Source: a virus
Direction: 5' to 3' (one strand)
UHGV virus genome: UHGV-0113347
DNA length: 50,362 nucleotides
The position numbers and the translations under genes were made by a program. Positions 2,183 to 7,890 of the stretch are shown piece by piece; position 1 is the stretch's first letter, and the number at the start of each line of letters is the position of its first letter. Under the pieces are notes generated by a model, which was not told the origin of the DNA, searched no databases, and saw nothing but the letters and a program-made list of their open reading frames with translations.

Positions 2183-2199
2183 ATATTTATTAGAGCAAT
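2183..2199 (-). promoter_or_regulatory. C1-repressor operator-like site
   Basis: ATTGCTCTAATAAATAT on minus strand, 16/17 to ATTGCTCTAATAAATTT. Confidence 0.6.
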
Positions 2200-2705
2200 T
2201 ATTGTTGGTGGAGAAGCGCGTTTTCATACTCCCTGACCATTAACGTAAGTACGCCGTGACTCCTGAAAACACGCGCCACTTCAATCTTATCTTCCAGCGC
2301 GAACGCAATTTTACTTAGACCAATTTTCTTCAGGAGATCAATCTTTGCTGGACCGTCATTTCTGTCATCGGTGGCAGGACGCATAGATAGCAAAGGCTCA
2401 GCCCCGTTTGTTACGTACTTCCGCAGCCAGGCTCGTGTTTTATCCCTTGCGATCTCACAGCGCCCGGTTACAAACCAGACCGTGTAAACGTTAAATAACT
2501 GGCGCACCATATCAATAACCGGAGTGATGGGAGTATCGGTGTCACAGGCGAGATTAAACTCGTTCCAGTCCTTTGTTAATGCACCTTTACCTGGTGGCGG
2601 AAGCAAATGCAGTCTGTCTTCAGTTGCCTCTGATATTGTTCCATCAATATCGACTATGACGATATACGGACGTTCCTGGTGTGCGTGTTTATTGAAAATA
2701 CTCAA
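2199..2705 (-). CDS. HAD-superfamily phosphatase-like protein
   Basis: N-terminal IVIVDIDGT (DxDxT motif I) and downstream VTGR. Confidence 0.5.
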   Translation of the reverse strand: MSIFNKHAHQERPYIVIVDIDGTISEATEDRLHLLPPPGKGALTKDWNEFNLACDTDTPITPVIDMVRQLFNVYTVWFVTGRCEIARDKTRAWLRKYVTNGAEPLLSMRPATDDRNDGPAKIDLLKKIGLSKIAFALEDKIEVARVFRSHGVLTLMVREYENALLHQQ

Positions 2706-2777
2706 ATGCCCTCCTCATTGGACGAAAAAAATGCTGGTGGGCGCACTCCACCAGCATTAAAAGTGACGCTGTAACTA

Positions 2778-4040
2778 TCAGCGGACGTAAATAGTGCCGC
2801 CGTTCTCTTTTTCCCATGCATCGCTACGTGCATAGCAAACATCGAGAAGTCTTCTTGCCGCTGTTTCCTCTAAACCCAATTCGACAACCAACTGCTCATG
2901 ACGGCGGGTAACCACATCAAACAGGGTATGCAACCCTTTAGTTGCCAGATCATCAATGAATTCCGGTTCGAACGGCAGCTCTGCATCTGCCAACATAACC
3001 TCTTGCGCCCACTCAACTCGACGGACCAATTCCGGGCGGCGGCTTTCCATCTCTTTACAGATCAATTCATGGAAGAACTCTACCCAACCTTCCGGCTGGA
3101 ACTCGCGGAAAATTGCCAACGGCTGGAAGTTTGGCATCAACCATTCGTTGATTCGGATATCAATGGCATAGCCCATGTCGCAGCAGAACTGATAAGCAAA
3201 GTCCAGCTTAGAAACGATATAAGGACGCTCGTTATTGAACTCTTTAGGCGATGAGATCCCATAAGCCAGGAGGCGCGGGAAGAAGGAGATTTGCCCTAAC
3301 GTCGGATGAAGTTTGCTTGCAGGGAAACGGCGCTCAGTAATGCCATACATTTCCTTCTTGAGCGTCGCAAATTTGGCATTCTCATTAACCAGCGCGGTAA
3401 CCTCTGCTTTTTTATTAGCAAATGCCACGCGCGCTTCGCTTGCATCTTTAATAGTTTTTTTGAGCTGTTGGTTAAGGTCGGCGACCTGCTTACGCAGTTC
3501 CTGTCGCTCGCTTTTAGCTTTGTTATAGCGTTTCTCAAGGTTAAAAGGATCAAGTTTCATGATCTCTTTATATTGAGATTTTAGCGTTGAAATCTGTGAG
3601 TTCCGCAGTTCAACCATCGCGGTCATTTCATTGAGTTTTGTTTCCAGCTCAATGCTTATACGTTCGGCATTATCAGCACGCTGGTTGGCGTCATGCGTCG
3701 CATTGTCGATCGCGTCCTGTTGCTGGCGTTTCAAATGTTCAATTTGTAGCTGAAGCTCTTCAATTTCTTTACCCTTCAGACCGAGATCCAACTGCATATT
3801 TTCAGCTGCATCTACCAGGGAGTTATGGCTATCAGCTTCTGCGTTATAAACATCAATAAGCTGTGCGTGAAGCATCTCCGCTGACTGAACCGCATTATCA
3901 AAAAAACGCGCTGTGAGGTCATCACAACTAACGCGGCGTTGCGCGGCCCGGATGTTCTGGATAATGGCCGGGATACCGGCATTCAGGACGTCAGGGATAG
4001 ATACATTTTCGATTGATTGGTTTTGTGCTGAAGTGATCAT
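2778..4040 (-). CDS. coiled-coil protein with C-terminal globular domain (420 aa)
   Basis: Residues ~90-220 are E/K/Q-rich heptad-like sequence; C-terminal 200 aa W/F/C-rich with no motif I recognise. Confidence 0.45.
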   Translation of the reverse strand: MITSAQNQSIENVSIPDVLNAGIPAIIQNIRAAQRRVSCDDLTARFFDNAVQSAEMLHAQLIDVYNAEADSHNSLVDAAENMQLDLGLKGKEIEELQLQIEHLKRQQQDAIDNATHDANQRADNAERISIELETKLNEMTAMVELRNSQISTLKSQYKEIMKLDPFNLEKRYNKAKSERQELRKQVADLNQQLKKTIKDASEARVAFANKKAEVTALVNENAKFATLKKEMYGITERRFPASKLHPTLGQISFFPRLLAYGISSPKEFNNERPYIVSKLDFAYQFCCDMGYAIDIRINEWLMPNFQPLAIFREFQPEGWVEFFHELICKEMESRRPELVRRVEWAQEVMLADAELPFEPEFIDDLATKGLHTLFDVVTRRHEQLVVELGLEETAARRLLDVCYARSDAWEKENGGTIYVR

Positions 4041-4041
4041 T

Positions 4042-4260
4042 TCAAAGTTCCGTATTAGCTTGTGCTTCGGTCATTTTTCCTAAGTATGAAGGAGGAAGGA
4101 CTACGCAATTTGTATCCAGTCCCTCACCTATGGCAGCCTGTAAAATTCTGGCTAAGGTGAGTCTCTTGTTGCGATACCTGGTGATGACATGCCTGATACC
4201 GCCGGTCGGCGTAACAAAGGCGATCAGCCAGTAGTGATATTTCCGTCGGAATGGCCACAT
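4042..4260 (-). CDS. hypothetical protein (72 aa)
   Basis: ATG at 4260 with AAGGTG RBS, immediately downstream of the operator palindrome. Confidence 0.35.
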   Translation of the reverse strand: MWPFRRKYHYWLIAFVTPTGGIRHVITRYRNKRLTLARILQAAIGEGLDTNCVVLPPSYLGKMTEAQANTEL

Positions 4261-4274
4261 AGTGCACCTTGTAG

Positions 4275-6340: not shown

Positions 6341-6900
6341 TGAATTGCACTGCTCCTACTTGCATTCAAAATATGTAAATCTGCGTGTTTTTTGCGGGTA
6401 TCCAGGAACTGCTGTTGCCATTTTGAAATAGACACCTGCGTTGGATTCCGTAGGGCTTGAGGGTGCGCGCCATGCCAATGAAGGCCGTTTTGCAGAGAAC
6501 AGTCATAGCCGACTAATACCACTACTTCAGCCCCTGATTCAGCAGCCAGACTGATAGCCTGCGCGCCGCTATTTACCCCTTCCGCCGGTCCACAATATCG
6601 CCTGTACTCCAACGAAAATGATTTCGCCGCCGCCAGGTTGGCTGTCACTTTGCGGAACCTCCCTCCCGGTATGGTGGAACCGTATTGCTTCCACCATGAC
6701 AAATCACCGGCGTATAAGGCATAAATGTCATCGAACATCTGCCAGGAATTGTTAACCGCGATGATTGAACAGCCAGTTTTTTCTATAGCAGCACAGTCCT
6801 CACGAGTGAGTGACGGACCGCTACCGACACAAAAAACAGTCCTAGTCGCCCTGGGTGGTATGTTCATTCTCAGCTGCAAATTCAGCCTCCAGGCGAGCAT
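6238..6900 (-). CDS. Rossmann-like protein, paralog A (possible DUF115/MptE-like)
   Basis: FCVGSGPSL...IIAVNNS...SGAQAISLA...VGYD, same motif order as paralog B. Confidence 0.35.
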   Translation of the reverse strand: MLAWRLNLQLRMNIPPRATRTVFCVGSGPSLTREDCAAIEKTGCSIIAVNNSWQMFDDIYALYAGDLSWWKQYGSTIPGGRFRKVTANLAAAKSFSLEYRRYCGPAEGVNSGAQAISLAAESGAEVVVLVGYDCSLQNGLHWHGAHPQALRNPTQVSISKWQQQFLDTRKKHADLHILNASRSSAIQCFPRINLEAVIALLSSAVAQAPQTLLRRAECRL

Positions 6901-7030
6901 TCATTTCAGCGATTACAGGGTCCACTACAGCATCTGTTTCCTGTTCATTACGCGGCATGACCGATGCCAGCGACTCATAATTAACCTTGGATGACACGAT
7001 TATTCTCCCGATGTTAAAGTGCACTACCAC
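6842..7030 (-). CDS. hypothetical small protein (62 aa)
   Basis: ORF between nuclease-like gene and paralog A; overlaps paralog A start. Confidence 0.25.
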   Translation of the reverse strand: MVVHFNIGRIIVSSKVNYESLASVMPRNEQETDAVVDPVIAEMNARLEAEFAAENEHTTQGD

Positions 7031-7063
7031 AAAGAGCGCACATGCACTAATTAATTTATTATT

Positions 7064-7642
7064 TTAAGCAGCATGCGACCACTTATCGCCGTTCAATACA
7101 TGCTCAATAGCCTCACCCTTTTTAAGACTTATGTATTCCAGGATGGCGGTAATCGCTTGTTCTGCACCGTACGCAAGAACGACGTAGTAACCTTCCTCTC
7201 TAAGCCTGCGCATCCAGGCGATCTGCTCTTTCGTCGGGGCTTTACCATTTGGTTCTTTAAGCTCAATTCGCATGCCGTGATAAATACCGCATGCTTTATC
7301 GAGACTCATGTCCGGATAACCTTTTTTCTGCCCTTCAGCCTTCATTTTCCCGGCGGTTGCTTTTGAACGTTTCCCTCCGTTAGGCGTTGCATGCAACAGC
7401 TCATAGATGTCAGGGTGCTTGCGTTCGAAGTAATCAAAAATGAAAACCTGCTCGAAGTGCTCGCAATTTCCGTCGCGCAGGTCTGGGTTCTTTGCAAGTG
7501 CTGCAAGTGCCTTCGCATGTGGAGAAACTTCTTTTACCGGCGCAAGCGATAAGAATGGATCCTTTTTGGTTTTTGGCCTGGACCGCCCCTTATTTCGACG
7601 CTCACTAAAAGCCTGAAACTCTTCCTCAGTAAAGCGCAACAT
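7064..7642 (-). CDS. putative VRR-NUC-like nuclease
   Basis: GYPDMSL...GMRIELKEPNGKAPTKEQIAWMRRLREEGYYVV resembles PD-(D/E)xK/VRR-NUC pattern. Confidence 0.45.
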   Translation of the reverse strand: MLRFTEEEFQAFSERRNKGRSRPKTKKDPFLSLAPVKEVSPHAKALAALAKNPDLRDGNCEHFEQVFIFDYFERKHPDIYELLHATPNGGKRSKATAGKMKAEGQKKGYPDMSLDKACGIYHGMRIELKEPNGKAPTKEQIAWMRRLREEGYYVVLAYGAEQAITAILEYISLKKGEAIEHVLNGDKWSHAA

Positions 7643-7644
7643 AA

Positions 7645-7890
7645 TCAGTCAAATCCTGCCGGTCGCATGCCATATTTACGCTGTTTTGCGGCCTGCTCTT
7701 CCCTGTGCCATTGCGCACATTCAGCGTCACAATAAATGCCTGATTCAATCGATTCATTGCAGTAACGACACTTCCCTGTAAATACCTGGCTCACGACCTG
7801 TGCCTGCTTTATGATGTTATCGATGGCCATGTCTTTGAGAGCTTCTAACTGATTCATGCTCAGCTCTGCATCATCAACACGTTCTGCCAA
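7645..7890 (-). CDS. C4 zinc-finger protein, possibly TraR/DksA-like
   Basis: CRYC...CDAEC cysteine pairs then basic Q/R-rich tail; first gene of the minus-strand operon. Confidence 0.4.
   Translation of the reverse strand: MAERVDDAELSMNQLEALKDMAIDNIIKQAQVVSQVFTGKCRYCNESIESGIYCDAECAQWHREEQAAKQRKYGMRPAGFD

Follow-up and report, generated by a model that had tools for sequence, protein, structure and literature searches.

The subject of this report is a block of genes at positions 2199-7890 of the virus genome UHGV-0113347, a stretch of 50,362 nucleotides (nt) that is referred to as the window. The block is, with near certainty, the pmgL-pap segment of a P1-type (Punavirus) phage-plasmid, and it is composed as a mosaic, whose modules have separate evolutionary histories. 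The three genes pmgO, pmgP and pmgQ would with good confidence form a glycosyl-transfer cassette, and a P1 mosaic that carries such a sugar cassette is the likely overall explanation of the locus. The comparative analysis thereby narrows what had been described as an enzyme-dense operon to a putative three-enzyme glycan cassette, which is found contiguous or fused in the head-neck, tail-tip and lysis-terminase regions of numerous unrelated phages and prophages.

The identity of the locus follows from a megablast comparison of the interval 2199-7890 with phage genomes, which matched 21 records, 19 of them covering at least 80% of the interval. Phage P1 matches with 99.2% nucleotide identity over 100% of the 5,692 bases, P7 with 98.1% and other P1-like phage-plasmids with 97.9-99.9%. 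The GenBank/RefSeq annotation of P1 was transferred at a constant offset (L001 = window + 802), and the names of genes, operators and promoters are those of the P1 and P7 records (AF234172, NC_005856 and AF503408). Base by base, 49 nt differences from P1 c1.100 are present between window positions 2100 and 8100, leading to 11 amino-acid substitutions in total; ten of ten open reading frames (ORFs) are full length compared to P1 and the gene order is the same. In the ORF list of window positions 1500-9000, a run of minus-strand ORFs fills 2199-7890, and adjacent genes overlap or are separated by 1-2 nt, except at the gaps that hold operators or the terminator. A preliminary description of this DNA had reported eleven minus-strand genes that are mostly translationally coupled; strand, coordinates and coupling are borne out, but the count is ten, since neither the ORFs of the window nor the annotation of P1 supports an eleventh gene. 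The same description had proposed an undescribed system, while doubting whether the genes might belong to a conserved P1-family backbone. The backbone annotation of P1 and P7, available since 2004, settles this doubt: the locus is already known. Annotated for two decades and covered by knockout and CRISPR interference (CRISPRi) studies, the pmg region of P1 is thus removed as a candidate for a new system.

Families, folds and gene neighbourhoods of PmgO, PmgP and PmgQ

The three genes of the proposed cassette are the following:

pmgO, 6238-6900, minus strand: protein of the MptE/Maf/GT42 fold, first gene of the putative cassette
pmgP, 5714-6340, minus strand: distant paralogue of pmgO, second gene of the putative cassette
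pmgQ, 4342-5043, minus strand: predicted GT8-like retaining GT-A glycosyltransferase, third gene of the putative cassette

PmgO and PmgP both possess the signature GSGPS / AVN / NSG / VG(Y/V)D, on the basis of which they had been described as adjacent paralogs. Profile-profile comparison of the two families with hhalign, using alignment A1 for PmgO, from which the natural O+P fusion P0051 had been taken out, and alignment A3 for PmgP, yielded a probability of 97.8% and an E-value of 6.8e-13 over 162 columns. This result confirms that PmgO and PmgP are true but distant paralogues. The two proteins share the MptE-like/Maf/GT42 three-dimensional fold. Residues G28, P29 and S30 hardly vary among the PmgO homologues, and the PmgO profile matches CstII and CstI weakly, precisely at the motifs GNGPSL and SG...LG...G.D. 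The PmgO family is large, with 7,967 representatives at 50% clustering (E<=1e-3) and 4,004 at E<=1e-10; 328 homologues were found for PmgP, and those included in A3 are at least 50% identical to PmgP and come from distant hosts. The annotated start of PmgO (6859-6900) is probably located too far upstream, as the predicted local distance difference test (pLDDT) value of residues 1-14 lies under 50 and the homologues start at about residue 17-22. Translation could instead begin at Met12, in which case pmgO would overlap less with pmgN.

PmgQ has a GT-A fold that is closest to members of family GT8. The DxD motif D79-L80-D81, which had suggested a glycosyltransferase-like protein from the outset, is invariant in 62 homologues and aligns to the DAD of Skp1 alpha-galactosyltransferase. 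A C-terminal segment, H208-G209-x-P211-x-P213, is nearly invariant in the homologue alignment and may lie where GT8 enzymes carry the third metal ligand. The best PDB sequence match of PmgQ has an E-value of 0.089.

With the PmgQ profile, 80 IMG/VR loci were fetched, and 38 non-P1 loci (34 from IMG/VR, the distant P1-like contig L050 and three phage records) were scanned by tblastn and hidden Markov models. In 23 of these 38 PmgQ-homologue loci, a confidently assigned MptE-like gene is present on the same strand within 3.7 kb upstream, and two MptE-like domains or genes are found in six. The divergent 'VVGSAPCL' proteins of L070, L071 and L074 appear MptE-like by eye, as do the C-terminal parts of the fusion proteins in L077 and L083; these reached hhalign probabilities of 13-57% and were not counted. 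Protein searches of phage genomes placed PmgO and PmgQ homologues near each other in phages that are not related to P1. Homologues of all three proteins are encoded contiguously in phiNP, a phage of Citrobacter, in E. coli phage IME392 and in the Xanthomonas jumbo phage Xoo-sp13. Furthermore, natural fusions connect PmgO with PmgP (P0051), PmgQ with an MptE-like domain (L068) and, in Xoo-sp13, a TylF methyltransferase with PmgQ; in other family members, PmgO has a TylF methyltransferase or Ig-like Big domains as its fusion partner. Fusions were recorded in the loci L068 (7989-9254), L077 (5200-6474), L083 (5659-6963) and L005 (4157-5482) and in the proteins P0051, P0309 and P0388.

The genes surrounding the cassette are often those of virion assembly. 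In many unrelated phages and prophages, a head-neck order on one strand is found, which runs from terminase, portal, ClpP-type protease and HK97-type major head protein to the PmgO-like gene, a head-tail adaptor, the PmgQ-like gene, often a methyltransferase, and head-closure or neck genes. Using HK97-type seeds, a packaging, head or neck gene was detected within 5 kb in 17 of the 38 loci, always on the same strand, and a capsid, adaptor or head-closure gene lies within 2.5 kb on the same strand in 15. The structural neighbours were confirmed by PHROG and Pfam, and the pattern is also present in Martelella and Onishia prophages. In Pseudomonas phage D3, the PmgO homologue is located between the major head and adaptor genes, and in PAJU2 just after the adaptor gene. 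D3 and PAJU2, together with a Hafnia prophage and the Klebsiella jumbo phage Eowyn, carry a variant in which the PmgO-like gene is accompanied by a gene for a protein of about 280 amino acids and a methyltransferase gene (L086, D3 5691-9143; L087, PAJU2 ORF010-012; L091, Hafnia prophage 8001-10007; L093, Eowyn). This D3-type cassette has no PmgQ homologue, and its conserved protein of about 280 amino acids has no Pfam match. The tblastn match in D3 spans orf6.5 and orf7, perhaps a single gene that was divided in the annotation; 'structural protein' is the label given to PAJU2 ORF010 and to the homologue in Eowyn.

In other loci, the cassette is found directly upstream of the large host-specificity tail protein, and in phiNP and a Hafnia prophage it separates the genes for lysis from the small terminase gene. 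Additional neighbours include GT2 and GT1-group transferases, methyltransferases of the TylF/FkbM type and a sulfotransferase, which argue for the assembly and tailoring of a glycan. In one IMG/VR contig (L084, 832-1500), the sulfotransferase-family gene has the MptE-like gene on one side and the PmgQ-like gene on the other, a hint that some forms of the cassette may make sulfated glycans. A connection to the head is also reflected in the P7 record, in which pmgN-Q are named hdmA-D for 'head morphogenesis', and in P1 pmgR, required for head completion, comes directly after pmgQ.

Possible targets and sugar donors of the proposed cassette

PmgO and PmgP likely act as a pair, because natural fusions of the two exist, and would transfer a nucleotide-activated sugar, plausibly an ulosonic acid activated with cytidine monophosphate (CMP) such as the 3-deoxy-D-manno-octulosonic acid (Kdo) of the host. 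PmgQ would add an alpha-linked hexose from a uridine diphosphate (UDP)-sugar via a metal bound to the DxD motif, so that the three enzymes together might build a short glycan on a phage virion protein late in infection. That a virion protein is the target is suggested by the gene neighbourhoods and is held with considerable reservation. CMP-Kdo as the donor is a speculative choice that we regard as rather doubtful; it was proposed because the named records apparently come from Gram-negative hosts only and because genes for sugar-nucleotide synthesis are absent from the inspected loci. In its widest form, the proposal would be that pmgO-pmgP-pmgQ is the P1 copy of a widespread phage cassette that glycosylates virion proteins in Gram-negative hosts, consisting of a pair with the Maf/sialyltransferase fold and a GT8-like enzyme, and possibly using host CMP-Kdo; this is advanced tentatively. 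The decoration of the virion would be dispensable for plaque formation in the laboratory, and knockouts and CRISPRi indeed classified pmgO, pmgP and pmgQ as non-essential (PMC9024508, PMC10695390). A role in glycan modification had already been considered for the operon as a whole, in the form of lysogenic conversion. It is retained here for pmgO, pmgP and pmgQ only and, because the operon is C1-repressed, as a late role linked to structural genes instead of lysogenic conversion.

Several observations weigh against this interpretation. A search of the searchable literature on phage and virion glycosylation, sialyltransferases and P1 retrieved no description of the O-P-Q cassette or of P1 virion glycosylation, direct evidence of a glycosylated P1 virion protein was not found, and in the paper on the virion proteome of P1, PmgO, PmgP and PmgQ do not come up in the main text. 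The apparent host range and the missing synthesis genes are the whole basis of the CMP-Kdo proposal. PmgO (23.4 bits) and PmgP (20.9 bits) both score below the cut-off of 34.6 for the Pfam family MptE-like (PF01973), which is passed by some homologues such as P0051 (44.6 bits), and a Pfam search with PmgQ (E<=0.1) returned no family, Glyco_transf_8 included. With HK97-type seeds, no recognised head or neck gene was found in 21 of the 38 loci, and the late-gene position could simply mark an insertion site at which morons are tolerated. In addition, lone PmgQ-like genes are present beside the int and tail-fibre genes of lambdoid phages. This is a position of the lysogenic-conversion type, which suggests that some members of the PmgQ family may act on host lipopolysaccharide (LPS). 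The lone genes were seen between int/xis and the fibre genes in Escherichia phage Chlobot (L096, PP925838, 20147-20866) and in the IMG/VR loci L059-L062, L065, L072 and L073, on the strand opposite to the fibres and without an MptE-like partner.

The same lone genes speak for the main alternative, a modification of the host envelope, in which PmgO, PmgP and PmgQ would alter the LPS core or some other glycan of the cell surface while the phage grows lytically and thereby prevent adsorption to debris, exclude superinfecting phages or aid lysis. The proximity of the cassette to lysis genes in phiNP and the Hafnia prophage fits this explanation, and the receptor of P1 is LPS core glucose. However, the operon of P1 is repressed by C1 and expressed late, and can therefore not act in lysogens; in at least 15 loci, the cassette has the capsid gene on one side and adaptor or head-closure genes on the other, all in the same orientation; and the inspected loci showed neither a membrane anchor nor a flippase or Wzx/Wzy-type partner. 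We therefore regard envelope modification as unlikely. An even less probable explanation is that PmgO and PmgP are pyrophosphokinases of the MptE or thiamine-pyrophosphokinase type, which act on a small molecule or nucleotide independently of PmgQ. MptE-like is the sole Pfam family matched, but again and again members of the family are found next to, or fused with, transferases of the GT8, GT2 and GT1 groups and enzymes that methylate or sulfate sugars.

The remaining genes of the block and their regulation

Outside the O-P-Q cassette, the block contains the following genes:

pmgL, 7645-7890, minus strand: 81-amino-acid zinc finger of the DksA/TraR type with four cysteines; PHROG 54 'DksA-like zinc-finger protein' (E 2e-11); one amino acid differs from P1
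pmgM, 7064-7642, minus strand: predicted VRR-NUC nuclease of the Holliday-junction-resolvase type; PHROG 5702 'Holliday junction resolvase' (E 4.8e-27)
pmgN, 6842-6997, minus strand: 51 amino acids; PHROG 2350; named HdmA in P7
ppp, 5040-5732, minus strand: Ser/Thr phosphatase of the lambda NinI type (PPP family) with the motifs GDLHGC, GDLIDRG and GNHE; PHROG 246 (E 5e-113)
pmgR, 4042-4260, minus strand: identical to P1; deletion leaves heads and tails unjoined (PMC9024508)
pmgS, 2778-4040, minus strand: 420-amino-acid coiled-coil protein; PHROG 1660
pap, 2199-2705, minus strand: 168-amino-acid stand-alone HAD phosphatase of the PNKP type, DIDGT at residues 19-23; PHROG 415

The distribution of these genes differs from that of the cassette. 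Homologues of Ppp, Pap, PmgS, PmgL and PmgN are absent from all 38 PmgQ-homologue loci, and PmgM and PmgR are found in L050 only. The gene ppp lies between pmgP and pmgQ in P1, P7 and contig L047; L050 lacks it at this position, as does Cronobacter phage JK004, where the remaining nine genes are present in order. In D6, a relative of P1, ppp is located amid lambdoid nin-type genes without pmgO, pmgP and pmgQ. By its distribution, Ppp is a predicted independently mobile moron of the lambda NinI type, which some members of the P1 group carry as an insertion between pmgP and pmgQ. Homologues of Pap were detected in 1,175 phage records, mostly from T1-like siphophages. The ten genes are therefore a mosaic in which only O-P-Q behaves as a unit. 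The modules would be PmgL, PmgM and PmgN (module 1), the glycan-building cassette PmgO, PmgP and PmgQ (module 2), the Ppp moron (module 3) and Pap behind an intrinsic terminator (module 5).

These distributions largely refute the idea that all ten or eleven genes act together as one system for nucleic-acid or nucleotide modification or for anti-defence, to which we assign a very low probability. The genes share one orientation, are for the most part translationally coupled and come under the same C1 and late control, and both phosphatase families have relatives that heal nucleic-acid ends (the PNKP-type HAD domain of Pap, and for Ppp a weak match to bacterial Pnkp, TIGR04075, E 7.7e-11). However, outside P1-like genomes the genes do not co-occur except for pmgO, pmgP and pmgQ, ppp and pap are distributed independently of each other, and internal promoters, operators and a terminator divide the block. 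An 'anti-defence arsenal', as envisaged in the preliminary description, is unsupported: PADLOC models searched against all ten proteins produced nothing but coiled-coil noise, a weak match between PmgS and LmuB (E about 1e-4), and single knockouts left plaquing and anti-restriction unchanged (PMC9024508). Ppp and Pap as a joint pair for RNA end healing were set aside as well, since a kinase and a ligase are absent and the two distributions are unrelated. The preliminary description had further stated that no described function explains these proteins together; most of them are indeed without an experimentally known function and the calls of enzyme families were correct, but the gene distributions argue against a single system. 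The DNA of P1 is methylated and otherwise ordinary and restrictable, which counts against a glycosylated, hypermodified base that protects phage DNA from restriction. Such a DNA-glycosylating role of the cassette, which falls under the nucleic-acid modification raised in the preliminary description, is scarcely credible: phage GT-A and GT-B enzymes that glycosylate 5-hydroxymethylcytosine (5hmC) DNA are known, but their pathways are tied to genes of the 5-methylcytosine (5mC) dioxygenase or thymidylate-synthase type (bioRxiv 10.1101/2023.12.21.572611), none of which lies beside the cassette in the inspected loci, the neighbours of the cassette are structural genes, and the knockouts did not alter anti-restriction (PMC9024508).

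The family assignments of the individual genes agree with those made from the sequence before any search, namely a zinc finger, a VRR-NUC-like nuclease, a lambda-type phosphatase, a coiled-coil protein and a DIDGT HAD phosphatase. PmgM aligns to psNUC (PDB 4QBL) with an E-value of 3.5e-17, including the catalytic PD...ExK (ELK), and its Pfam VRR-NUC score of 21.3 bits is slightly under the cut-off of 23.8. psNUC is a dimeric Holliday-junction resolvase (PMC4103454). PmgM is thus probably a junction-resolving nuclease, which, as a dimeric VRR-NUC enzyme, would trim branched replication or recombination intermediates. Ppp reaches 59.4 bits against Pfam Metallophos (cut-off 21.5). For PmgS, weak matches of the coiled-coil type only were obtained for residues ~55-236; a distant homologue in D6 is annotated as prohead scaffold, and the P7 name is ShtB, 'sheath contraction'. 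An essential scaffold function of PmgS was discarded, as its deletion is viable. Pap scores 46 bits against Pfam HAD_PNKP (PF25109, cut-off 27.6) and matches Pnkp1 (4XRP) with E 1e-3; its 168 amino acids correspond to the phosphatase domain alone and no 5'-kinase domain is present. Pap is a putative HAD enzyme of the 3'-phosphatase type acting on nucleic acids or small molecules. The gene pap holds 25 of the 49 nt differences from P1 in the 6-kb region, leading to four amino-acid changes, which points to recombination or to a weakened constraint on this part of the block. Family searches with PmgN and PmgR gave no informative match, PDB sequence searches with PmgS, PmgL and PmgP (single sequence, plus a profile for PmgP) produced nothing meaningful, and an NCBIfam scan of all ten proteins returned only matches of Ppp and coiled-coil noise.

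Single-gene deletions of the pmg and upf genes of P1 showed that pmgA, pmgB, pmgC, pmgG as well as pmgR are essential, and plaquing and anti-restriction were unchanged in the other 24 mutants (PMC9024508). Deletion of pmgR, the only essential gene of the block, leads to tails and incomplete heads and can be complemented in trans (PMC9024508). In a genome-wide CRISPRi screen, the whole block was non-essential except for pmgN, and the essentiality of pmgR was missed (PMC10695390). The authors flag the pmgN call as contradicting the deletion data: knock-down scored the gene as essential, whereas its deletion is viable and the genes downstream of it are dispensable (PMC10695390).

The expression of the block is governed by the following sites:

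Late promoter LPpmgL (-10 box and -22 element), 7979..7997, minus strand: P1 annotation by coordinates; sequence identical to P1
C1 operator Op82 (O26), 7948..7964, plus strand: ATTGCACTAATAATTTT, two mismatches to the consensus; P1 annotation; common to the divergent promoters of pmgL and gene 26; 100% identical to P1
C1 operator Op83 (Oppp), 7041..7057, plus strand: CATGCACTAATTAATTT, identical to P1; P1 annotation
C1 operator Op86a, 4324..4340, minus strand: consensus match and P1 annotation; overlaps the promoter PpmgR
C1 operator Op86b, 4275..4291, plus strand: consensus match and P1 annotation
Intrinsic terminator between pmgS and pap, 2730-2758, minus strand: 11-bp stem with six GC pairs followed by UUUUUUU; centroid -18.1 kcal/mol, z -2.3
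C1 operator Op88 (OpmgT), 2183..2199, minus strand: consensus match and P1 annotation; controls the downstream pmgT operon; one nt differs from P1

A search of the whole window with the C1 consensus, allowing up to three mismatches, gave nine matches compared to 0.18 expected. Four of these (2183, 4275, 4324 and 7948) coincide exactly with Op88, Op86b, Op86a and Op82 of P1, and the operator-like sites that had been noticed at 7948 and 2183 are thus Op82 and Op88. Op83 is too diverged to be matched by this search. The sites split the block into four sub-units, pmgL-M, pmgN-Q, pmgR-S and pap; the division by operators and a terminator had been recognised, but as three units. Upstream of pmgL, sigma-70 promoters are annotated in P1 in addition to LPpmgL, and the regulatory region there is identical to P1. 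The operators and promoters, known from the P1 annotation and the consensus search, therefore indicate a block that is silent in the prophage and active in the lytic cycle: the C1 repressor would silence it via Op82, Op83 and Op86a/b in the prophage, and transcription would start from the sigma-70 promoters and LPpmgL during lytic growth. The five other C1 operator matches lie at 18371-18398, 21658-21674, 36804-36820 and 38473-38489; those at 18371 and 18382 overlap on opposite strands, as in operators of the bivalent type. A strong plus-strand terminator-like hairpin with a 10-bp stem and a T-rich tail (2128-2150) is located just downstream of Op88 between pap and pmgT and overlaps a 44-amino-acid minus-strand ORF (2014-2148).

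Comparison with known systems

The block has the same ten genes, gene order, C1 operators and late promoter as the pmgL-pap (hdm, sht, pap) region of P1 and P7, with 98-99% identity; nothing is structurally different, and compared to P1 only the nt and amino-acid changes given above were found. Among the enzymes outside the cassette, PmgM resembles the stand-alone VRR-NUC resolvases psNUC and stNUC in the aligned catalytic D...ExK, but bears an additional N-terminal region of ~75 residues and is non-essential in P1. Ppp has the three PPP motifs of lambda NinI and of E. coli PrpA and PrpB and, according to the P1 record, 64% identity to the lambda phosphatase, whereas it scores under the NCBIfam equivalog cut-offs for PrpA/PrpB. 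Pap matches the phosphatase domain of T4-type polynucleotide kinase, including DxDGT, but lacks the kinase domain.

PmgO and PmgP share the N-terminal G-x-G-P-S and the SG...LG...G.D motif with Maf flagellin glycosyltransferases, the GT42 sialyltransferases CstI and CstII and PF01973. In contrast to Maf with its 632 amino acids, they are minimal domains of ~200 amino acids without the Maf flanking domains, and PmgO bears an invariant motif of its own, GYDCS...HWHGxH. PmgQ has the invariant DxD in common with the GT8 enzymes glycogenin, LgtC, GlyE and Skp1 alpha-galactosyltransferase; however, it is only 13-17% identical to them, has only 233 amino acids, is phage-borne and is paired with MptE-like enzymes.

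If the proposed cassette does act on virion proteins, virion glycosylation, so far documented chiefly in mycobacteriophages and giant algal viruses, would also occur in classical model phages, P1 and D3 among them. Glycosylated P1 virions would bear on phage immunogenicity and on the use of P1 as a delivery vehicle, and about 8,000 clusters of phage proteins that are called 'hypothetical' or are mis-named ('alpha-2,3-sialyltransferase', 'norphogenetic protein') would become annotatable. In mycobacteriophages, capsid and tail-tube proteins are glycosylated by virus-encoded enzymes, and chlorovirus PBCV-1 possesses the capsid glycosyltransferase A64R. These systems differ from the one described here in their enzyme families and hosts, and in P1 virion glycosylation is inferred from gene position alone; what they have in common with the O-P-Q cassette is that virus glycosyltransferases are expressed with or near the structural genes.

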